This document shows positions 35,615-50,222 of a DNA stretch of 63,307 bases, one piece after another. The stretch spans positions 1 to 63,307 of the forward strand of contig JAFPWV010000014.1 in the NCBI GenBank assembly GCA_017412675.1, read 5' to 3'. The position numbers were made by a program, and so were the translations under genes. Numbering within the stretch: position 1 is the first letter of the stretch; each line of letters opens with the position of its first letter. The DNA is from Clostridia bacterium (GTDB taxonomy: Bacteria; Bacillota; Clostridia; Oscillospirales; CAG-272). A model generated the notes under the pieces. The model made no database searches. It had not been told where the DNA came from and was given only the letters and a program-made list of their open reading frames with translations.

Positions 35615-35672
35615 TTGACAGCGGGGACGGGATATGCTATAATGCGAAGGTACCTGATCGAAAGGTACCTGA
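35615..35672 (+). promoter_or_regulatory. marR promoter plus a duplicated AGGTACCTGA box (candidate MarR operator)
   Basis: TTGACA (35615-35620), a 17-nt spacer, then TGCTATAAT (-10 at 35638-35643). Two copies of AGGTACCTGA lie at 35648-35657 and 35663-35672. Each contains the 8-bp palindrome AGGTACCT, and their spacing is 15 bp centre to centre. Confidence 0.55.
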
Positions 35673-35716
35673 CAAATCTTGTGCCACGTCGCGCATCGCG
35701 CGGGAAAGGAGTCCCT

Positions 35717-36214
35717 TTGCCAGTCATTGAAGAAGAAATCGTCTGGAAGCTGCGCCGCATCCACGCGATCGGACGGAGAGGCGCGCCGCATCGCCCGGAA
35801 ACCCCGGAGGCCGCAGCCGAGGAACAGCAGAACCACAGCCGCGGGCGCATGATGGGCATCCTCGCGGACCGCGGACCGATGAGCCAGACCGCGCTTGCCG
35901 CCATCCTCGACATCCGCCCGCAGTCCCTCTCGGAGCTCGCCGCCAAGGCGGAGTGCGAGGGATTCGTCTCGCGGGCTCCCTCGGAGGAGGACCGGCGGCA
36001 GACCATCGTCTCCCTCACCGATGCCGGACGCGCCCGTGTTGCGGCATTCCGGGAGGCGCACCGGCGTCATGCCGAAGAATTTCTCGCCCCCCTCAGCGAG
36101 GACGAAAAGAAAACGCTCCGCGTCCTGCTCGACAAGATCATCGAGGGGCAGGAGCCCGAAAAACCAGAACAAAATCCGGAGAGATCCGACAAAACCGAAG
36201 GAGGAGTCGCCTGA
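35717..36214 (+). CDS. MarR family transcriptional regulator
   Basis: Winged-helix core (L....GPMSQTALA..L.IRPQSLSEL..K.E..G.V.R..SEEDRR...V.LT..G). I chose the TTG start at 35717 because AAGGAG lies 5 nt upstream. The longer ORF-track start overlaps queA. Confidence 0.75.
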   Translation: MPVIEEEIVWKLRRIHAIGRRGAPHRPETPEAAAEEQQNHSRGRMMGILADRGPMSQTALAAILDIRPQSLSELAAKAECEGFVSRAPSEEDRRQTIVSLTDAGRARVAAFREAHRRHAEEFLAPLSEDEKKTLRVLLDKIIEGQEPEKPEQNPERSDKTEGGVA

Positions 36215-38463: not shown

Positions 38464-38943
38464 TCAGCTCATCAGCACGATCACCGAGGCGAACAGAAGC
38501 ACGCTGATGTTTCCCCCTCGCAGCCCTTCCCCGGCGGCAAACAGCCAGAACGCGGCGCATACGGCGTGCGAAACGGTCCGGGCAATCCCGTCCGCGTGAA
38601 AGCCGAGGGGCGTGAGGTGCAGAAGACACGAGAGGATCCCGCCGCCGTCGAGCCCTCTGCAGGGGAGCAGGTTGACCGCCGCGAGGAGGAGCGAGCACCC
38701 GCCGAAGACCTCCCAGCCGTCGATCTCTGCCGCGAGGATCGCCCCGATCACTCCCGCCAGGGGACCCGCTGCATGGACCGCCGCCTCCCGGAGATACCCG
38801 GCGCGGGAGAAATCGAAGGTCAGCCGCAGGCCGCCGATCCCGCCGATGCCGCGCCGCAGAGGGATCCCGAGGAGCCGTGCCGCCGCGAGATGGCCCGCCT
38901 CGTGCAGGATCACCGCCGCCGCGAGCGCGAAAAACCCGCTCAT
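38464..38943 (-). CDS. Minimal site-2 protease (peptidase M50) family membrane metalloprotease
   Basis: 159 aa with HEAGH at residues 14-18 inside TM1 and the second S2P motif NLLPCRGLDGG. About 4 TM segments and no PDZ or CBS domain. Confidence 0.7.
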   Translation of the reverse strand: MSGFFALAAAVILHEAGHLAAARLLGIPLRRGIGGIGGLRLTFDFSRAGYLREAAVHAAGPLAGVIGAILAAEIDGWEVFGGCSLLLAAVNLLPCRGLDGGGILSCLLHLTPLGFHADGIARTVSHAVCAAFWLFAAGEGLRGGNISVLLFASVIVLMS

Positions 38944-38978
38944 ACTAATTCCTTTCCATAAAGAAGCAAACGAAAATT

Positions 38979-39263
38979 CCCCTCATCCGCCCTCCGGGCA
39001 CCCGGTTTCAACTTGTTGAAACCGACCCCACAGGCGGGGGAAGGCAACAAAGAGAGTGTGCAGCATATTTAAAACCGACACCAATTCTCCGTGGAAACCG
39101 TCTTTATTTCTGGAAACGCTGCATGTTATGAGGCTTCCCCCTCCGTGTGGGAAACCGACTTTGCCTTGCAAAGTCGACGAGTTCATTGCCGATGAACTCG
39201 GGCTGTCAATGTAGTGACTGATGAGGGGACTTCATCGCCTTTCATTTACAACGCTTTAAAACA
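38979..39263 (-). repeat. Structured ~285-bp repeat element, copy A (candidate ncRNA or MITE-like element)
   Basis: The reverse complement aligns with 49824-50107. It has a closing inverted repeat CCCCTCATC/GATGAGGGG, three near-perfect hairpins and a long-range GGGGGAAG/CTTCCCCC pairing. It begins 9 nt after the stop of the co-oriented ORF 39273-39605 and ends 35 nt before the S2P start codon. Confidence 0.8.
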
Positions 39264-39272
39264 GATTTCGTA

Positions 39273-39605
39273 TCATTCCCCGCGGATCAGGTTCGCAAAG
39301 AACGTCCCGATCTCATCGAAGACCGACCAGTCCTCCTCGAGAGCGGCATACCGGTCCGGCTGTGCGAGGACGTCCCGCATCCCGTTCTCCGGGACCGCGT
39401 CGGAGGAGACCTGCATGACGGCCACCGCCTCCCGAGACCCGACCGCTGCCTCCCGCCGTTCCCCGCGCGCCACCGGTCCCGCGAGCGCCACCCCGAGCGC
39501 GAGGATCCCGACGGCGAAGAGGACATCCTCCCAGTGGGACCGACGCTTCCCGACTCTTTCGTACCCGACCGTCATTTTCGTATGGATCGCCTCCGTTTCG
39601 TCCAT
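39273..39605 (-). CDS. Hypothetical small single-pass membrane protein
   Basis: 110 aa with one TM segment (VLFAVGILALGVALAGPVA) and an acidic C-terminus. The composition is protein-like, unlike the overlapping S/R/T-rich plus-strand ORF. The RBS is weak. Confidence 0.45.
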   Translation of the reverse strand: MDETEAIHTKMTVGYERVGKRRSHWEDVLFAVGILALGVALAGPVARGERREAAVGSREAVAVMQVSSDAVPENGMRDVLAQPDRYAALEEDWSVFDEIGTFFANLIRGE

Positions 39606-39648
39606 TTTTGACCGTTTCCGCGATGACCTTGTTTTTTTGCCGAATGCA

Positions 39649-39678
39649 TTGACACGCCGCGCGAAAAAGGATTATAAT
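39649..39678 (+). promoter_or_regulatory. Promoter of the cysC/Q-cysD-cysN operon
   Basis: TTGACA (39649-39654), an 18-nt spacer, then TATAAT (39673-39678). The leader is about 45 nt with no riboswitch-sized structure. Confidence 0.6.
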
Positions 39679-39727
39679 GTAGGATGAAGAATTATGGTAT
39701 GAGAGCGGCCCTGCCGCCGGAGAATCT

Positions 39728-41143
39728 ATGACGGAGAACAACCTCACCCCCTACGCTTCCCGAGCGGGCATCCCGGAGCGCATGAAGATCACCGGATCGC
39801 GCCCGGCGGTCTACTGGATGACCGGGCTGTCCGGTTCGGGAAAATCCACCGTCGCCGCGCTGGCGGAAAAGATGCTCGTGGAAGAGGGACGAGCCGCCCT
39901 CATGATCGACGGAGACACCGTCCGCACGGGACTCTGCCGCGGTCTCGGCTTCTCCCCCGAAGACCGTCACGAAAACCTGCGCCGGATCGCGGAGCTGGCA
40001 AAGATCGCCGCGCTCGCCGGTATGACCGTCTTCGTCTGCGCGATCTCGCCGATGGCTGCGGATCGGGAACAGGCGCGCGCGATCCTCTCCCCCGCCGTCC
40101 GGTTCTATGAGGTCTGGATGGCGGCGACCGTCGAGGAATGCGCCGCGCGCGATCCGAAGGGATTGTACCGGAGAGCGTTCGCCGGAGAGATCCGGAACTT
40201 CACCGGGGTCTCCGCGCCGTACGAGCAGCCGGCCGCTCCCGACTTCACCTTCCCCGCGTCGATGTCCGCCGAGGAATGCGCCGCCGTTCTCGTCCGCTCT
40301 GCGCGGGAGGATGACTGGGACCTCGAACGCCTCATGCGCACCATGCTCGATGCGGCTGCCGAAGCCTCCGCCAAGATTATGGAGATCTACGAGAGCACCT
40401 ACGACGTCGCCTACAAAGCGGACAACTCCCCCCTCACCTCCGCCGACACCGCGTCGAACGAGATCCTGACGGGCATCTTCCGCCGCGAATTCCCGGAGTT
40501 CTCGATCCTCTCCGAGGAGGAGGCCGATTCGACCGAGCGGCTCTCGAACAACGCCGGGGTCTTCATCATCGATCCCCTCGACGGGACGAAGGAATTCCTC
40601 TCACACAACGGGGAGTTCTGCGTCTCGATCGGGTTCGCGTCCGGCCATCGAGTCCGTGCGGGCGTCATCGCCGTTCCTGCCCAGAGGCTCTTCTACTATG
40701 CGGCAGAAGGACACGGCGCCTACAAAATGCCCATCGACGGCCTGAAGAAGGACTTCACCGTCGGCGTCGGGGAACGGCTCTCCGTCTCGGACCGCCGGGA
40801 CAAGCTGATCGTCGCGGCCAGCCGCTCGCACGGGGACGCCCAGACCGAGGCGCTCCTCGCGGCGAACGAAGACCGCATCCTCTCGACCGTCACGGCGGGC
40901 TCCTGCCTCAAGGGATGCCTCATCGCCGAGGGCAAAGCGGACATCCACTACCGCTTCGGCGCGTTCATGAAGGAGTGGGACACCGCGGCCATGCAGATCC
41001 TCTGCGAGGAGGCGGGCGCGTCGTTCACCGATCTTCACGGGCGTCCCGTGCGCGCCAACCGCGAGGATCCCGTCAACCGCGACGGCTTCATCATACTCAA
41101 TCACCCGGCGTCCGCGCTGACCATGCCCGACGGGCTGATCTGA
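39728..41143 (+). CDS. cysC: Bifunctional adenylyl-sulfate kinase (N-terminal) / 3'(2'),5'-bisphosphate nucleotidase CysQ-like (C-terminal)
   Basis: The N-terminus has the APS kinase P-loop [12 protein letters not shown] and DGD.VR.GL. The C-terminal ~270 aa has inositol-monophosphatase family motifs ([15 protein letters not shown]). Confidence 0.85.
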
Positions 41144-41210
41144 TCCCCGGCCGCCCGCACTTCTCATTTCCGACCCATCACTTCCATTTCAGAAGGATTC
41201 ATCACACTAT

Positions 41211-42097
41211 ATGCAGTACAGCCACCTCGATATGCTGGAGTCGCGGAGCATCCACATCCTCCGCGAATCGTACTCCGCGTTCAAGAATCTCTGCATGCTC
41301 TGGTCCATCGGAAAGGACTCGACGGTCCTCCTCTGCCTCGCGCGCAAAGCCTTTTACGGACACGTCCCCTTCCCGCTCGTGCATGTGGACACACACTATA
41401 AGATCCCCGAGATGATCGAATACCGCGACCGCCTCGCCATGGCGTGGAACCTCGACATGATCTACGGCGAAAACCGGGAGGCCCTCGATCAGAAGGAGAC
41501 CTTCCCGGACGGACGCGCCACCCGGATCGAATGCTGCCGCCGCCTCAAGACCGAAGCCCTGACGCACACCCTCGCCGGGGACTGGCCGCGGTACCGCCTC
41601 AACCACACGACCGGGCTTTACGAAGTCGACCCGAACCGCGAGCCCTTCACCGGGGTCATTGTCGGCGTGCGCGCGGATGAAGAGGGCAGCCGTTCCAAGG
41701 AGCGGTATTTCAGCCCCCGGGACCGCGCGGGCGACTGGGACGCGGACGATCAGCCCCCGGAATTCTGGGGACAGTACAAGACCGATTTCGCCCCCGGCAC
41801 GCATGTGCGCATCCATCCCCTCCTCGACTGGACCGAGGTGGATATCTGGGAATACATCCGGCGCGAGGGCGTTCCGGTCGTGTCCCTGTACTTCAATCAC
41901 GGCGACGGGAAGCGCTACCGTTCGCTCGGCTGCTGGCCCTGCACCAAGCCGGTGGATTCCGACGCCTCCACGCTCGACGAGATCATCGAGGAGCTGAAAT
42001 CCGGCAAGTTCGCGCGCGTCGCCGAGAGAAGCGGCCGCGAACAGGACAAGGAGGACGGCGGCGGCCTCGAAGAGCTGCGGAGAGGGGGGTATATGTG

Positions 42098-42098
<1 letters not shown>
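41211..42098 (+). CDS. cysD: Sulfate adenylyltransferase subunit 2
   Basis: PAPS-reductase/ATP-PPase fold with SIGKDS (PP-loop), [13 protein letters not shown] and a GYM C-terminus typical of CysD. Confidence 0.9.
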
Positions 42099-43678
<1,580 letters not shown>

Positions 43679-43697
43679 TCATGGAAAGGATAAGCCG

Positions 43698-44876
43698 ATG
43701 AAACCGATGAACGATTACCGCTTTGTGCGCGGCGTGAACTACTATCCCTTCCCGACCGACGAGGAAAGGCTCCGCCGGGAGCTCTCCTTCGGACGCCGCG
43801 TGAACCTCAACGCGCTCCGCGTCTGGCTCGATTTCCACACCTGGGAACGCGACGGATCGGACTATGTGCGCCGCCTCGTCGAATCCGTCCGGGTGGCGTA
43901 CGACTGCGGCTATCAGACCATGCCGATCCTCTTCAACGGCAACGGCGAGAATTCCGCGACCATCCCCCGCGACCGCTGGCCCGCGATGGAGGCATACGTC
44001 TCGGAGATCGTGACCGCGCTGCGCGCCGAACCGGGGCTTCTGATGTGGGACGTGATGAACGAGCCGCTCTGCTGCTGGTGGATCGACGGGTGCGCTGACG
44101 CCGAGGAAAAGGCCCGCCGCAAGGAGACCGTCTGGGAATTTTTGCGCCACTTCATCCCCTGTGTCCGCGAGCACGACATGACGAACGCCGTCACCGTCGG
44201 CTACACCACCGCTTGGGAGGCCGAGGATTCGATCAACGCGCTGACCGACGTTGTCTCCTTCCACGATTACAGCCCGACCCGCGCCGTCATCGAGGCGAAT
44301 TTCGCCCGTGCGGCGGAGATCGGGAAGCGGTTCGGCCAGCCCGTCCTCCAGACCGAGACCGGATGTCTCGCGCGCTGCAATCCCTATGACATGGCACTCG
44401 AGACCTGCGAGAAGTTCGGCATGGGCTGGATGGTCTTCGAGCTGATGATCCACGACCGCTGCGACTCCGAGCACGGCGTCTTCTACACGGACGGCACCGT
44501 GCGGGATCCCGCCACGATCGCCGCGATGATGGGATGCTATCGCTGCCGGGATCTCGAGCGTATCGTCGTGCCCGTCCCGAACCGCGAAGGACATGCGGCC
44601 CTCGCGATCGACGGGATCAAAAAGGCCCTGACGGAGTACACCGACGACGCCTTCGACTACCGCCCGTCCGACATCGGCAAGCTGCTCGACGCCTGCGAGG
44701 TCGCGGCGAACCTGCTCGAATGCTGCGATCTCGTTCCCATGGCTTCTCCGCCGACGGCGAAGATCCTCGCATACAGACGCCGAACGGACGCCGGGCAGAA
44801 ACCGCCGCTCGGCGAGATCCGCGCCTTTGCCTACGGGCTCGCGAAGGAACTCAGGGAAATCTGCCAGATCCTCTGA
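43698..44876 (+). CDS. Clan GH-A (TIM-barrel) glycoside hydrolase, no signal peptide
   Basis: GVNYYP, WDVMNEP (acid/base Glu) and QTETG (candidate nucleophile). GGAAAGGA RBS. The family is not resolved. Confidence 0.65.
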   Translation: MKPMNDYRFVRGVNYYPFPTDEERLRRELSFGRRVNLNALRVWLDFHTWERDGSDYVRRLVESVRVAYDCGYQTMPILFNGNGENSATIPRDRWPAMEAYVSEIVTALRAEPGLLMWDVMNEPLCCWWIDGCADAEEKARRKETVWEFLRHFIPCVREHDMTNAVTVGYTTAWEAEDSINALTDVVSFHDYSPTRAVIEANFARAAEIGKRFGQPVLQTETGCLARCNPYDMALETCEKFGMGWMVFELMIHDRCDSEHGVFYTDGTVRDPATIAAMMGCYRCRDLERIVVPVPNREGHAALAIDGIKKALTEYTDDAFDYRPSDIGKLLDACEVAANLLECCDLVPMASPPTAKILAYRRRTDAGQKPPLGEIRAFAYGLAKELREICQIL

Positions 44877-44931
44877 ACCGAATAAGCCGAGAGGGACCGT
44901 CCGCCGGGACAGCCCCTCTTTTTGTCCGGAT

Positions 44932-45795
44932 TCAGATGATCCCCGAGACGGTCAGCGTCGCCGTGCCGGGATCGACGGTCCAGACGCCGGTCGCGGGATC
45001 CTGCGTATAAGACGCCCCCGGGATCGAGAGCACGCCGTCCGCCGTGGCGAATTCGCCGGTGGTCTCGTCGTACACATACTGATCGGGCGTCAGCGTCACG
45101 CCGTTGAGCGTCACGGTGAGATCCGTGAGAACGGGCGAGAAGGTGTCATGGATCACGACGCCGTCCTCCTCCGTTGTCGCCGCACCGGTGTTCTGCACTT
45201 CGAACGTGTAGGTCACGAGGCTGTTCTCGGTGACGACGGTCGGGTTGACGCTCTTGACGATCGAGAGATCCGCCGCCTGCTCCGCCGTGACGACCGCGGT
45301 GTCCGAAACCTCGCCCGTGACGCCCGTGCCCGTGACCGCCGCCGTGTTCTCGATCTGGCCGCCCTCGCCGAGCGGCGCGTATTCGTTCACGTCGGCGAGA
45401 TAGACGAGCGTGGTGACGCCGTTCGCCGGGACGTCGATCCCTTCAAACGTGAGCGCGGTACCGGCCGTCACCTGCGGGGCGGGTCCTTCGACGCCGTCCG
45501 TGAAGAGCCGCGCGGAGCCGTCGACATAGGTCAGCGGGATCGCGGTGATCTTCTCCGTCGTATCGCCGTCCGTCTCATACGAGCCGAGATCGTCGGTGAC
45601 GGTGAGTCCCGTGAGCGGCGTGCCGCCGGTGTTCTGGATGTTCACGACATAGGTGATCCGCCCGCCCTGCGCGTACGTGTCGGGCGTCGCGGTCTTGACG
45701 ATGCCGACGGCGTCCACGATCTCGCCGACGGTGATGTTGGAAGCCCGGGTGACGCCCCCGAACGTGATGGTGGCCTGATTCTGGAAGATTGCCAT
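44932..45795 (-). CDS. DUF11 (conserved repeat domain) protein with two repeats and no signal peptide
   Basis: Two Ig-like DUF11 units (VKTATPDTY...YVVNIQNTG...LTVTD and VKSVNPTVV...YTFEVQNTG...). I chose the ATG at 45795 (AAGGA RBS). The 87-aa N-terminal extension in the ORF track is non-homologous. Confidence 0.7.
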   Translation of the reverse strand: MAIFQNQATITFGGVTRASNITVGEIVDAVGIVKTATPDTYAQGGRITYVVNIQNTGGTPLTGLTVTDDLGSYETDGDTTEKITAIPLTYVDGSARLFTDGVEGPAPQVTAGTALTFEGIDVPANGVTTLVYLADVNEYAPLGEGGQIENTAAVTGTGVTGEVSDTAVVTAEQAADLSIVKSVNPTVVTENSLVTYTFEVQNTGAATTEEDGVVIHDTFSPVLTDLTVTLNGVTLTPDQYVYDETTGEFATADGVLSIPGASYTQDPATGVWTVDPGTATLTVSGII

Positions 45796-46016
45796 TTTCC
45801 TGTCCTTTCCGGGCCGCGCGATGGCAGCCCGCCGCATTCCGGAGAGGGGGAATCGTCCCGCCCCTCCTCTCACAGGATATGCACCCCGGCTCCCCGGCGT
45901 TCGGCGCGGCATATTCTTACACGGTCTCCAAATTGTTAATATAATTGTCACCAATTCCTTCCGCGATCGATGTATAATATTGTCGCCGGGGAATCGCCCC
46001 GGATAAGGAGAATTGT

Positions 46017-49000
46017 ATGGAAAAGAAAAAGAAACTCTACTGTGTTGCGAACGCACACCTCGACACCCAATGGAACTGGACCATCCAGGACACGATCCGC
46101 GACTGTGTGAAGAGCACCCTCGAGCGGAACTTCTACCTGATGGACAAGTATCCGCACTACCGTATGAACTTTGAAGGCGCGTTCCGCTACAAACTGGCGA
46201 AAGAGTACTACCCCGATCTCTACGAAAAGCTGAAGGGCTATATCGCAGAAGGCCGCTGGAACGTCGCGGGCTCCACCTGGGACGCCATGGACGCGAACGT
46301 CCCGTCCTCCGAGGCCCTCATGCGCCAGATCCTCTACGGGAACGGATTCTTTGAAAAGGAATTCGGCAAGAAGAGCACCGATATCTTCCTCACCGACTGC
46401 TTCGGCTTCCGCTATGCCCTGCCCTCCATCGAAGCGCACATGGGTCTGAACGGCTTCTCCACGCAGAAGCTCGTCTGGGGCGTCGGCTCCCCGATCTACA
46501 ACGAAGACGGCACCGTCACCCGTCCCGAACCCGAAGACCGCGACACACCCAGAGAACAGCGCAAGCCGCGCATGGACCTCGGCAAGTGGATCGGCCCGGA
46601 CGGAAAAGGCGTCGCCGTATCCCTCCTCGAGGGCGATTATACCTACAACTTCGACCGCGGCTTCGGTCCCGAGCATCGGACGGACGACCGCCCCGTCGGC
46701 GAGCGTCAGGAATACCTGCGCGCCATCGAGCACAACGAGAAATACACCGGCATCCCGTCCCGCTCCATGTACTTCGGCACGGGCGACTACGGCGGATCCT
46801 GCAAGGAGATCTCTGCGAAGATGCTGAACGAGGCGATCGACAAGAACGGCGAGAACCTCTACGAAGTCATCGCGGCCTCCACGGACGACCTCTTCAACGA
46901 CCTCACGCCCGAGGAATTCGACGCGCTCCCGACCTACGACGGCGAGCTTCTGATCCCGCACGGCTCCGGCGCCGTCACCTCCCACACCATCAACAAGAGA
47001 TGGAACCGCAAGAACGAGCTGCTCGCGGACTCCGCGGAAAGAGCGGCGGTCATGGCGGCATGGCTCGGCGCGTCCGAATACCCGGAGGAGCGCCTCCTCA
47101 CGGCATGGCAGACCTTCCTGTGGCATCAGTTCCACGACGACCTGCCCGGCACCTCCATCGCCGAAGCGTACGTCTTCACCTACAACGATTACGTCATCGC
47201 CCTCAACATGTTCGCGGCGGAGCTGAACAAGGCGGTCGGCGGCGCGGCAAAGGCCCTCGACACCAACGTGAAGGGCACGCCCGTCGTGGTCTACAACCCC
47301 GTCTCCACCGCGCGCAACGACATCGTCACCGTCTCGCCCATCGACATCGACAAGCCGTACGTCCGGGTGTTCGCGCCTTGTGGATGCGAAGTCCCCGCGC
47401 AGTACGACGCCGCGTCGAAGACCTTGAAATTCGCGGCGAAGACCCCCGCGGTCTCCTGCGCCGTCTTTGACATCCAGGCCTCCGACGAGCCCTCTCCGCT
47501 CGCCGCGTCCGTCACGGTCACCGCCCGCACGGTCGAGAACGAGCGCTATCTCGTCACCATCGATGAGAACGGCGACATCGCCTCCATCGTCGACAAGGCG
47601 AACGGCAATCAGGAACTCCTCTCCGCGCCCGCCGGACTCGAGATCGGCCCCGACACCTCGCAGAACTGGCCGTCTTGGGAGCTCGTCTGGACGGATTCCC
47701 TCGAAGAGCCGATCCGCGTGAAGGATGGCGTGAAGATCGAGATCGCGGAGAACGGCCCCGCCGTCTGCTCCCTGAAGATCACCCGCACGCACGGCGGCTC
47801 CACCTTCGAGCAGACCGTGCGCCTCACCGCCGGCGGACAGCGCGTCGACGTGGCCTGCAAGGTCGACTGGTTTGAGAGAGCCTCCAACCTCCGCGCCGCG
47901 TTCCCGCTCGCCGTCTCCAACCCGAAGGCCGCGTTCGACCTCGGGCTCGGCGCGATCGATTCCGGCAACACGGATTCCTTCCCGTACTATCAGCACGTCG
48001 TGCATCAGTGGGCGGACCTCACCGCCGAGGACGGCTCCTATGGTGTCTCGATCCTCAACGATTGCAAGTACGGCATGGACAAGCCGAACGACAACACCCT
48101 CCGCCTCACCCTCATCCACACGCCGCTCGCGCAGTTCTCCCCCGAATCCGGTCAGGACTGGCAGGACATGGGTCTCAACCTCTTCACGTATTCCATCATG
48201 GGTCACAAGGGTCCCCGGACCGGCGAGACCACGAAGGAAGCCGCGGAGCTGAACCAGCCCCAGATGTCCTTCCGTACCTCCCGTCACGGCGGCGCGAAGA
48301 AGGTCCTCTCCCTCGTCTCCGTCTCCGACGACGCGGCGATCATCCGCGCAGTCAAGAAGGACGAAAAAGGCAATCGGATCATCGTCCGCGTCCAGAACAC
48401 CGTCGGCCACGCGCTGAAGGACGTCAAGCTGACCTTTGCGGCCAACCTCACCTCCGTCACCGAGACCAACGGCTACGAGGACGAGATCGAGCCGGTGGCC
48501 TTCGACGGGAACACCCTCACCCTCGACTTCGGCAAGTACGGCGTCCGCACCTTCGCCGTCGAGCTCGAAGCGCCTGCCTGCGCCGTGGCTCCCGTGGAGT
48601 ATGTGCCGCTCGGGGTGCCCGTGGATAAGCGGATCACCTCCTATCAGTTCCGCCTCGATATGGGCGAGTTCGCCAAAGGGATCTCCATCCCCGGCGAGCT
48701 CTGGGAAGAACAGATCGTCTCCTCCGGCGTCCCGTTCTGGCAGCTCCGCGAAGAGATGAAGAACGCCATGACCTGCCGAGGCCAGACGTTCAAGATCCCC
48801 GCGGGCGCAACGAGCGTCTCCGTCCTCGCGGCCTCCGCAAACGGCGACAAGACCGTGACCTTCCGGGCGGGCGGCAAGGAGATCCCCGTCACCGTCCAGG
48901 ACTTCCACGACAACGTCGGCGCGTGGGATCAGCTCGTCAACGGCAAGACCCCGCTCATCAAGCGCGATGAGATCGCGAAGACCTTCACCCATACCCACGA

Positions 49001-49823
49001 CAAGGACGGCGACCGGCTCTACCTGTTCGCGTACCTGTTCCGGTATGAGATCCCGGTCTCGGGCGCGGACAGCCTCACCTTCCCGGACGACGAAGACATC
49101 CTCGTCACGGCTGCGACCGCCTCCTTCGAGACGGACTGTGTCGAGCCGTGGTGCGACCTCTACGACCGGGTCGAGACCTCCGACGCGCCCGTCCACACGC
49201 TGACCCTCATCAACTGCGCGGGCCACGAGACGAAGACCCTCTACCAGACCGGCAAGACCGCCCTCGTCCGCACGAGCCAGTATGACGACGGCTGGGTCTT
49301 CGAGGGCTGGGAAGGCGACTGCATCGCGGCGGTTTACGGCCCCGCGGCGGTCATCAAGATGCCCGATCACGACGTCACCGTGAAGATCAAGGCGGAAAAG
49401 CTCGGCCACGACATCCTCCTGAACAAGCCCGCCACCGCGATCCACGAGTTCAATGAGCGCGAGAAGGCGTGCAATGCCGTCAACGGCAACGACCGGACCA
49501 AGTGGTGCGCCGCGGACGAAAGCGGGAAGCTCTGGCTCACCGTCGACGCCGGGGATGTTTACAAGGTCAACCGCTGGTTCGTCATGCACGGCGGCGCGAT
49601 CGAGAGTCCCGGCTACAACACCCGCGACTTCAGCCTCCAGTACAAGGTGAACGAAGGCGACGAGTGGCAGACCGCGGACACCGTGACCGACAACCACGAC
49701 AACCAGACCCTGCGCGACTTCCCCGCCGTGGAGGGACGGTACTTCCGCCTGTGGGTCGACCGCGCGACCCAGCACCGCGATCCCACCGCAAGAATCTACA
49801 TGTTCCAGGTCTTTGAGGCGTAA
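46017..49823 (+). CDS. GH38 alpha-mannosidase with a C-terminal F5/8 type C (discoidin) domain
   Basis: The N-terminus AHLDTQWNW...DCFG carries GH38 catalytic motifs. Central and C-terminal GH38 domains follow. The last ~150 aa match the discoidin pattern (NGND.TKW......W..VD.G....V.R......GA........F.LQY...G..W). AAGGAG RBS. Confidence 0.9.
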   Translation: MEKKKKLYCVANAHLDTQWNWTIQDTIRDCVKSTLERNFYLMDKYPHYRMNFEGAFRYKLAKEYYPDLYEKLKGYIAEGRWNVAGSTWDAMDANVPSSEALMRQILYGNGFFEKEFGKKSTDIFLTDCFGFRYALPSIEAHMGLNGFSTQKLVWGVGSPIYNEDGTVTRPEPEDRDTPREQRKPRMDLGKWIGPDGKGVAVSLLEGDYTYNFDRGFGPEHRTDDRPVGERQEYLRAIEHNEKYTGIPSRSMYFGTGDYGGSCKEISAKMLNEAIDKNGENLYEVIAASTDDLFNDLTPEEFDALPTYDGELLIPHGSGAVTSHTINKRWNRKNELLADSAERAAVMAAWLGASEYPEERLLTAWQTFLWHQFHDDLPGTSIAEAYVFTYNDYVIALNMFAAELNKAVGGAAKALDTNVKGTPVVVYNPVSTARNDIVTVSPIDIDKPYVRVFAPCGCEVPAQYDAASKTLKFAAKTPAVSCAVFDIQASDEPSPLAASVTVTARTVENERYLVTIDENGDIASIVDKANGNQELLSAPAGLEIGPDTSQNWPSWELVWTDSLEEPIRVKDGVKIEIAENGPAVCSLKITRTHGGSTFEQTVRLTAGGQRVDVACKVDWFERASNLRAAFPLAVSNPKAAFDLGLGAIDSGNTDSFPYYQHVVHQWADLTAEDGSYGVSILNDCKYGMDKPNDNTLRLTLIHTPLAQFSPESGQDWQDMGLNLFTYSIMGHKGPRTGETTKEAAELNQPQMSFRTSRHGGAKKVLSLVSVSDDAAIIRAVKKDEKGNRIIVRVQNTVGHALKDVKLTFAANLTSVTETNGYEDEIEPVAFDGNTLTLDFGKYGVRTFAVELEAPACAVAPVEYVPLGVPVDKRITSYQFRLDMGEFAKGISIPGELWEEQIVSSGVPFWQLREEMKNAMTCRGQTFKIPAGATSVSVLAASANGDKTVTFRAGGKEIPVTVQDFHDNVGAWDQLVNGKTPLIKRDEIAKTFTHTHDKDGDRLYLFAYLFRYEIPVSGADSLTFPDDEDILVTAATASFETDCVEPWCDLYDRVETSDAPVHTLTLINCAGHETKTLYQTGKTALVRTSQYDDGWVFEGWEGDCIAAVYGPAAVIKMPDHDVTVKIKAEKLGHDILLNKPATAIHEFNEREKACNAVNGNDRTKWCAADESGKLWLTVDAGDVYKVNRWFVMHGGAIESPGYNTRDFSLQYKVNEGDEWQTADTVTDNHDNQTLRDFPAVEGRYFRLWVDRATQHRDPTARIYMFQVFEA

Positions 49824-50107
49824 TGCTTTAAATGTTGCAAACGCAAGGCGTTAGCTCCCCTCATCAGTCACTTCGTTGACAGCCCGAGTTCATCGGCGAT
49901 GAACTCGTCGACTTTGCAAGGCAAAGTCGGTTTCCCACACGGAGGGGGAAGCCTCACAACATGCAGCGTTTCCGAAAATGAAGACGGTTTCCATAAAAAA
50001 TTGGTGCCTGTTTCAGAAACGCGATGCACTTATTTAAATGCCTTCCCCCTTGGGCGGGTCGGTTTCAACAGGTTGAAACCGGGTGCCCTGATAGGGCGGA
50101 TGAGGGG
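49824..50107 (+). repeat. Structured ~285-bp repeat element, copy B (candidate ncRNA or MITE-like element)
   Basis: It begins at the nucleotide after the GH38 stop codon. Closing helix: 49857-49865 with 50099-50107. Hairpins: 49886-49906, 49909-49929 and 50060-50081. Long-range pairing: 49944-49951 with 50042-50049. Confidence 0.8.
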
Positions 50108-50193
50108 GAGCGAACGGCTCTTGATCGCTATATCAGCATAAAACAGCGAATTCTTAGAAAAATTAAGTCTTTGTTAGAAACCCCGTCAATCCC

Positions 50194-50222
50194 TTGCGGA
50201 CGGCGGGGTTTCGTGTTATAAT
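50194..50222 (+). promoter_or_regulatory. yccF promoter
   Basis: TTGCGG (50194-50199), a 17-nt spacer, then GTGTTATAAT (-10 at 50217-50222). It lies downstream of repeat copy B. Confidence 0.55.

Follow-up and report, generated by a model that had tools for sequence, protein, structure and literature searches.

A structured intergenic element in a Clostridia genome as a probable composite palindromic repeat built from a widespread ~45-nt unit

The GH38-yccF element and its fold

The stretch of DNA analyzed here (the window; 63,307 nt of contig JAFPWV010000014.1, assembly GCA_017412675.1, from a Clostridia bacterium) carries a strongly folded intergenic element at 49824-50107, between a gene for a GH38 alpha-mannosidase (1268 aa, with GH38 domains by Pfam) and yccF. 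An earlier reading of the letters by a model (the sequence-only reading) had taken this element, here called copy B, for a candidate novel noncoding RNA (ncRNA) or non-autonomous mobile element that starts right after the TAA of the mannosidase open reading frame (ORF) and looks like part of a 3' untranslated region (UTR) or an intergenic element. Its placement is confirmed: the ORF occupies 46017-49823, and copy B is inside the 3' UTR of the GH38 gene, because a terminator-like hairpin (Table 1) stands between the element and yccF. Of the two identities proposed, the mobile element has essentially stood up, since the element is multi-copy, modular, polymorphic between strains and made of inverted units; the ncRNA has not.

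Every helix that had been drawn on paper for copy B is found (Table 1), and the minimum free energy fold recovers the closed multi-branch architecture. The forward strand reaches -120.5 kcal/mol (z = -5.98), and none of 200 dinucleotide shuffles was as low. The reverse complement folds better than the forward strand (-125.8 kcal/mol, z = -7.96), and copy B computed as single-stranded DNA (ssDNA) has a z of -6.5. The structure favors neither strand, nor RNA over ssDNA; because the reverse strand and the ssDNA fold at least as well, the fold singles out no RNA strand. According to a profile hidden Markov model (HMM), homology among copies stretches past the bounds given above, covering 49826-50141 in copy B.

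No known RNA family is recognizable in the element, as the sequence-only reading had also supposed. Rfam 15 covariance models, run over the whole window, give no match at the gathering threshold and, at E<10, chance-level matches only (at most 20 bits); the IS605/HEARO-type RNA models give none. Canonical examples of the unit described below, from 13 other loci, return one unrelated tRNA only, and at L110 (loci from other assemblies bear L numbers here) there are sub-threshold miRNA-hairpin models only. A literature search with sequence strings produced chance matches only, and no description of the ~45-nt unit treated below was found in the papers searched. Two further readings were rejected. 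The ORFs of 80 and 67 aa that lie over the copies share their first ~50 residues, the frame being lost by 1- and 2-nt indels, and have no ribosome-binding site (RBS), so a protein-coding reading fails. A hammerhead-like CUGAUGAG on the reverse strand is fully paired in the closing helix, is followed by no GAAA box and has no Rfam ribozyme match.

Copies of the element and the unit within them

The element is multi-copy, is present or absent between strains at a given site, exchanges modules, and breaks and mis-joins short-read assemblies. A BLAST search of the copy B region against the window finds an inverted copy, copy A, at 38979-39263 (84% identical). Its neighbors are all on the minus strand, on one side the stop of a 110-aa ORF (39273-39605) and on the other the RBS and ATG of an M50 peptidase gene (38464-38943). 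When metagenomes were scanned with a 19-mer, seven real loci turned up at 85-90% identity. With the window included, at least eight distinct insertion sites are found in this lineage (A and B, and six more: E2, L011, L012, L013, L015 and L017).

At one of these, E2, the window itself has an empty allele, 11 nt long, within the 5' UTR that leads into a MarR-ABC operon (annotated in L206 and L208 and then mapped onto the window) with a TTG start at 35717, downstream of a strong consensus promoter (TTGACA at 35615-35620, a 17-nt spacer, TATAAT at 35638-35643). In L016, which gives the left junction, and L014, which gives the right one, a sense-oriented element stands in place of the 11 nt. The presence or absence of the element in this leader is a natural experiment on leader insertion and, together with the alleles in 3' UTRs, a ready-made test of what it does to the expression of genes. 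For copies A and B, too, empty alleles were sought, and none was found: each contig carries the element or stops inside it.

Whole helices come and go among the copies. P3 and P4 are missing en bloc in L002, L015 and L017, the first of which is the same GH38-yccF locus as that of copy B in another strain (GCA_024680525.1). P6 is missing in L013 and L014a, where a plain intact hairpin A (CCTTCCCC..GGGGAAGG) is found instead, and in L012 a P3-like hairpin takes the place of P6 and is followed by a truncated tandem copy. When P3, P4 and P6 were searched for as independent repetitive extragenic palindromes (REPs), they were found inside the element only (in the window) and in window-type copies only (elsewhere); a free-standing existence as REPs was accordingly rejected.

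Contigs ending within the element (L004-L010 and L208/L209/L211) are common, and many carry yccF or the M50 gene. Other contigs (L014, L016 and L206) are hybrids, in which the flanks of different copies are joined via the element; the arrangement of L014 is that expected from an inversion between the copy at 35674-35684 and copy A, with a hybrid element. These may be real recombinants or assembly chimeras; in both cases they bear the mark of a multi-copy repeat. In genomes and phages, the family that so disrupts short-read metagenome contigs may also mediate real inversions and module exchange.

Within each copy lies, twice, a unit of ~45 nt, which reads hairpin A (CCTTCCCCC-loop-GGGGGAAGG), TG, hairpin B of variable sequence and length, C, and the tail GGATGAGGGG. 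A covariance model of the unit (R1), made from 40 units, 39 from other genomes and one a window-type row, has exactly four significant matches over the 63-kb window (E from 1e-5 to 5e-3, the fifth-best match having E=0.1), and these are the two inverted arms of each copy. Because two inverted arms are found in each copy, the closing helix of copy B is the pairing of two unit tails. Its two hairpin B's are P2 and the GCCC/GGGC stem, and the long-range helix is the half-hairpins A' and A paired with each other. P3 and P4 are lineage-specific hairpins inserted in the right-type arm, as P6 is in the left-type arm. The ~85-nt spacer between the arms varies most among copies and is absent from the elements of other genomes. 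At the far end, the tails of other copies have a weaker likeness to that of copy B up to ~50158.

Table 1. Features of the element and its surroundings in the window
Feature	Positions	Strand	Details
Copy B 5' leader	49824-49856	+	Small hairpin AACGC-AAG-GCGTT at 49840-49852; alignable among copies, conservation below that of the core; HMM match from 49826
Copy B right-type arm (inverted unit)	49857-49953	+	CCCCTCATC at 49857-49865; hairpin GTCA-CTTCGT-TGAC at 49867-49880; hairpin A' remnant ending GGGGGAAGCC at 49944-49953; R1 match 49856-49900, minus strand, E=0.0025
P3 hairpin	49886-49906		GAGTTCATC-GGC-GATGAACTC
P4 hairpin	49909-49929		CGACTTTGC-AAG-GCAAAGTCG
Copy B spacer (~85 nt, lineage-specific)	49954-50039	+	Imperfect inner helix TGCAGCGTTTC / GAAACGC-GA-TGCA
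Copy B left-type arm (forward unit)	50040-50107	+	GCCTTCCCCC at 50040-50049; inserted P6; hairpin B GCCC-TGATA-GGGC at 50085-50097; tail GGATGAGGGG at 50098-50107; R1 match 50075-50108, plus strand, E=1.2e-5
P6 hairpin	50060-50081		CGGTTTCAAC..GTTGAAACCG
Closing helix	49857-49865 with 50099-50107		CCCCTCATC with GATGAGGGG
Long-range helix	49944-49951 with 50042-50049		GGGGGAAG with CTTCCCCC
Copy B 3' tail	50108-50141	+	GAGCGAACGGCTCTTG..; common to L017 and L012; HMM match stops at 50141
Terminator-like hairpin and T-run (context)	50181-50218	+	Stem 50192-50208; tail TTTCGTGTTA
Copy A	38953-39278	-	Span by profile HMM; arms (R1 matches) 39185-39229(+), E=0.0049, and 38978-39038(-), E=6.8e-5
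Empty allele of third insertion site (E2)	35674-35684	+	11 nt AAATCTTGTGC; 5' UTR of the MarR-ABC operon

Distribution, context and covariation of the unit

The unit is a widespread dispersed intergenic repeat, which occurs as singletons and as pairs in both relative orientations. A gapped pattern from the 3' arm (GCCTTCCCCC-N20-50-CGGATGAGGGG) gives 76 matches in 68 contigs of IMG/VR and is found at no fewer than 119 loci in GTDB representative genomes. Among the matches listed, the carriers are Oscillospiraceae, Acutalibacteraceae, Ruminococcaceae, Gemmiger, Pseudoflavonifractor, Butyrivibrio and other Lachnospiraceae, together with Acidaminococcaceae, several Planctomycetes and a few metagenome-assembled genomes of other phyla. 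Exact scans of representative genomes and viral contigs with a 23-mer gave no match, because the 23-mer spanned the lineage-specific junction of P4 and hairpin A'. In an annotated phage collection only unannotated metagenomic records were matched, and in a plasmid collection nothing. The flanks of carrier loci hold about one further element per 30 kb, a density equal to that of the window.

Where the unit has an inverted partner, the latter reads CCCCTCATC, hairpin, hairpin A'. In 52 pairs the tails point inward and pair around a spacer of 45-100 nt, and the tail-outward order of the window is seen in six near cases and in longer ones; spacers of paired units run from 10 nt to >400 nt. In Butyrivibrio sp. 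VCD2006 (L118 5530-5900) the spacer between inverted units is made of ~12 tandem copies of a 36-nt repeat, CTGCCTTTCCCCTGAAGAGGAACTTTTCTTT. Complete elements stand in tandem, ~12-40 nt apart, in L192 and L193 (e.g. L193 7050-7420), and at planctomycete loci (L163, L173, L175 and L187-L192) spacers of ~90 nt lengthen the tail-tail helix, with what appear by eye to be compensatory changes.

Every copy with context examined is intergenic. The adjoining genes are housekeeping genes in bacterial genomes (PFK, TIM, PGK, RF-1, SecDF, aminotransferases and others) and structural genes in phage contigs. A census of neighboring genes (the window and 150 neighbor ORFs) turned up no transposase, reverse transcriptase or recombinase and no recurrent mobile gene; for the window, the gene annotation agrees with the earlier remark that no transposase, reverse transcriptase or TnpB gene is adjacent. 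The orientation of the unit relative to its neighbors in bacterial genomes is about even, with 68 sense and 88 antisense neighbor calls. As for the window-type loci, B, L011 and L017 each follow a stop codon and precede a terminator; A, L012 and L013 stand between cistrons, E2 belongs to a 5' UTR, and L015 is antisense to both neighbors. Neither within copy A or B nor immediately upstream of them is a sigma-70-like promoter predicted.

Related phage contigs have filled and empty alleles of the unit, without target-site duplication (TSD), and in L064 a solo hairpin A stands as the empty allele. When L038 is compared with L040 (around L038 10480-10640), the left flank is identical up to the unit, and hairpin B and everything to its right differ; the unit there coincides with a mosaic breakpoint between phage modules. 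A role of hairpin A as an intrinsic terminator was rejected: only 2-3 A or T residues flank the hairpin, too few for a U-tract, and genes in phages start 10-25 nt downstream.

Hairpin B covaries. Across 40 diverse units, two-sided changes occur at three of its five pairs, and the share of paired cells is 97.9%, where slid controls have 50-66%. Invariant in these units are the 3' arm of hairpin A and the TG, the tail and two of the base pairs in hairpin B; the search pattern itself had set the tail and also hairpin A's 5' arm. The loops of hairpin B are mostly GNA triloops closed by C-G (59/128) or CGCA (27/128), a G.A mismatch recurs at its second pair (35/128), and G.T wobbles outnumber A.C mismatches by 7 to 1 on the top strand of the unit. 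Triloops of the form C-GNA-G are a hallmark of stable ssDNA mini-hairpins, and hairpins that proteins recognize, such as REP/RAYT sites, the ends of IS200/IS605 and attC, typically combine an invariant stem with a conserved mismatch. The pattern suggests a unit structure under selection as a recognition site, which may be recognized as ssDNA. Within the ~285-nt family, nearly all of the 81 predicted pairs are without variation; the few changes on both sides stem from the swapped hairpin of L012.

Interpretation and alternatives

Why does so ornate a fold lie between these genes? Probably, though well short of certainty, the feature is a DNA-level composite palindromic repeat of the REP/BIME/MITE sort (MITE stands for miniature inverted-repeat transposable element) that is co-transcribed in UTRs, and not a dedicated ncRNA gene. 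Each copy consists of two inverted ~45-nt units, tail-outward, around the lineage-specific spacer; their tails CCCCTCATC and GATGAGGGG make the closing helix, and the unit hairpins together with P3, P4 and P6 make the junction. It is because of this inverted-repeat construction that both strands have a multi-helix fold. The observation is real and far beyond chance, but it is ordinary in kind, and the residual interest lies in the widespread unit.

The unit presumably spreads, or once spread, like REP/REPIN/BIME or MITE elements. A trans-acting enzyme would recognize hairpin B and its fixed flanks, probably as a single-stranded hairpin, and homologous recombination and gene conversion among the copies would then yield the modular variants. 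Since most window-type copies sit inside transcription units (3' UTR, intercistronic or 5' UTR), the element in RNA form is probably a stable structure of a passive kind, one that may shield the 3' ends of mRNAs from exonucleases or modulate read-through, effects that are known for REP, ERIC, BOX and Correia elements.

A more specific proposal, which we put forward tentatively and consider well under an even bet, is that the unit is the site of a trans-acting ssDNA enzyme in a REP/RAYT-like system that does without the usual GTAG/CGTC tag, crosses phyla (Bacillota and Planctomycetes) and colonizes phages, the window element being an elaborated dimer. If a partner enzyme were found, Bacillota and their phages would come within the REP/RAYT paradigm. 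A variant in which the unit is an RNA processing or anti-termination module of gut phages is less likely.

The closest known systems are compared here in turn. REP, BIME and REPIN denote repetitive extragenic palindromes and their dimers, as outlined in PMC3116915 and PMC2817692. REPs occur as singletons, head-head or tail-tail dimers and heterodimers, with 20-100-bp spacers, some of which have complementary ends, and a GTAG or CGTC tetranucleotide tags one end of the stem-loop (PMC3733652). The 2013 survey of these repeats does not contain the words "Firmicutes" or "Clostridi" (PMC3733652), and the RepRanger paper lists only three Bacillota genomes. The likeness to the present repeat is broad: a short palindromic intergenic unit, singletons and inverted dimers in both orders, spacers of tens to ~100 nt, one large stem-loop fold for the dimer, no TSD, and co-transcription with genes. 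The solo hairpin A allele recalls the REPs that sometimes sit inside "target palindromes" (PMC3733652), or else a deletion between two copies of hairpin A. Unlike in REPs, the unit here comprises two hairpins and a fixed 10-nt tail, which pairs with that of its partner, and a RAYT was looked for and not seen in the window, among the 150 neighbor ORFs or between bracketing pairs. REP families are usually lineage-specific, typically with >100 copies per genome, and a RAYT is a single-copy Y1 transposase gene flanked by repeats.

BOX of Streptococcus pneumoniae, ERIC/IRU and Correia elements are modular intergenic repeats of ~100-350 nt with stable folds, found in UTRs or between co-transcribed genes; their copies differ by whole modules and can affect mRNA stability, termination or processing. 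No sequence likeness to them was noticed, although no direct comparison was made. BOX is built of linear A-Bn-C modules and Correia of terminal inverted repeats with a TA duplication, whereas the present element has two inverted units with inserted hairpins and no TSD. Integron attC sites share with it imperfect palindromes with a variable center at the 3' ends of genes, and are recognized as folded single strands. Unlike attC, the element has no RYYYAAC or GTTRRRY cores (by inspection), no cassette arrays and no integrase, and it has four or five hairpins in place of a single bulged stem. It works like a REP dimer or BIME, yet it fits no named family: it is not assignable to RAYT-REPs because it has no GTAG/CGTC tag and no RAYT was found at the loci examined, to MITEs because no TSD and, in the loci fetched, no parent insertion sequence (IS) was found, or to attC because it has no core sites.

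Several observations weigh against a DNA-level repeat of this sort. The hybrid contigs, as said, may be assembly chimeras and not true recombinants. No TSD or clean excision footprint was found at the insertions, the window site swapping 11 nt for the element. In place of a GTAG/CGTC tag, hairpin B is flanked by GGTG (5') and CGGATGAGGGG (3'), or CCCCTCATCCG and CACC on the other strand. No transposase, RAYT or other candidate mobilizing gene lies near any copy examined. The number of copies per genome would be of the order of 10^2, by extrapolation from the flank density and not by direct count. That a near-identical unit should occur in Bacillota and Planctomycetes is unusual for REPs and hints at a conserved partner or function. 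Lastly, there are biases of orientation: seven of the eight window-type loci are co-oriented with the surrounding transcription (two-sided binomial p ~0.07, suggestive but not significant), and solo units in phage contigs have a strong strand bias, mostly antisense to genes, 5-25 nt upstream of RBSs, in contigs that are mutually related and whose strand counts are hence not independent. The case for some selection at the RNA level, or dependent on orientation, rests mainly on these biases, and either could reflect selection on the RNA.

It is on the latter that the best of the alternatives draws, namely that the element is a true structured RNA family (a cis-acting UTR element or multi-copy small RNA that serves as mRNA stabilizer, processing site or attenuator bound by a conserved protein), its repetition in the DNA being secondary. 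The strong covariation of hairpin B, the excess of G.T over A.C on the top strand and the conservation of the unit sequence across phyla would all fit such an RNA. However, the phage bias sets the GNA-loop, wobble-tolerant strand antisense to the mRNAs, a polarity opposite to that of the window copies, and in bacterial genomes there is no bias of orientation. The two strands fold equally well, neither hairpin A nor the closing helix covaries, almost all pairs of the 285-nt family are invariant, whole helices (P3/P4 and P6) are dispensable, no promoter is predicted, and L015 opposes both its neighbors. We regard an RNA family as unlikely, and on the same grounds the ncRNA claim of the sequence-only reading is not upheld. 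In gut and rumen Clostridia, palindromic repeats can give rise to ornate, stable intergenic folds as a by-product, and copy number and strand symmetry are best checked before an ncRNA is called.

Marginally less probable still is a classical MITE or palindrome-associated transposable element (PATE), that is, an internally deleted IS derivative (of IS200/IS605 with the TnpB guide-RNA scaffold, or of the DDE type) whose parent elsewhere supplies the transposase. The element is like these in being small (285-340 nt), noncoding and multi-copy, with inverted arms and with insertion polymorphism between strains and related phages. Subterminal hairpins with fixed flanks and no TSD would fit ssDNA (Y1/HUH) transposons. 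The inverted arms do provide terminal inverted repeats of the MITE kind, with ~35 nt of leader and 35-50 nt of tail lying outside them. On the other hand, the element has no fixed length, and singletons, both relative orientations and arbitrary spacers are REP/BIME-like and not what a fixed left and right end would give. Over the ~190 loci fetched, 1.4 Mb in all, a transposase-like ORF is never bracketed by a unit pair, pairs ~1 kb apart enclosing a phage capsid-like gene or a LytR-family gene, and no autonomous IS shares the ends of the element; nor do the IS605/HEARO-type RNA models match. The sequence-only reading had held that many copies with TSDs and without covariation would indicate a plain MITE; many copies there are, but no TSDs were found, and hairpin B covaries.

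That the window copies are recombination sites of an invertible 10.5-kb segment (39264-49823), shufflon- or inverton-like, with the structure as target of a site-specific recombinase, is very improbable: copies A and B are mutually inverted, L014 fits an inversion between copy A and the copy at 35674-35684, and heterologous flanks are joined through the element in L016 and L206, but no recombinase gene is adjacent, the A/B inversion itself is in no contig, the alternative junctions all come from short-read metagenome assemblies that break at the repeat (which chimeric assembly explains equally well), and singletons beside housekeeping genes do not fit invertons.

A second kind of repeat accompanies the unit in other genomes. 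Many units have, no more than tens of nucleotides away, classical REP-like hairpins with a GTAG tag (GTAGGGGCG...CGCCCC and variants) in Oscillospiraceae and other Clostridia (L088-L199), with 170 candidates in 50 of the 119 loci among the matches listed (e.g. L090 5850-5900, L116 5740-5830 and L199); in the window there are none. This suggests BIME-like mosaics of two repeat types and, possibly, RAYTs in such genomes.

Some other genes were noted as well. The locus from which the L015-type copy comes in the source population (L206 1-1000) adjoins dipicolinate synthase genes (DpaA_N and Flavoprotein/DpaB) and a gene of the sigma-70-like type. These genes and the SpoIVFB-like M50 peptidase of the window, whose GC content is 63%, jointly indicate a spore-forming Clostridia host. 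In L002 (4173-5054; GCA_024680525.1) a 293-aa HNH endonuclease gene (PF01844, PF14279) lies between genes with an RNase III domain and a transglutaminase core. It is a strain-specific insertion downstream of yccF; L001 and L004, which agree with the window, lack it at the corresponding position. Finally, divergent from the gene upstream of copy A, positions 39728-41143 of the window encode a 471-aa protein in which an APS kinase (PF01583) is fused to an inositol-monophosphatase/CysQ-like domain (PF00459), apparently a bifunctional sulfate-activation and PAP-phosphatase enzyme.

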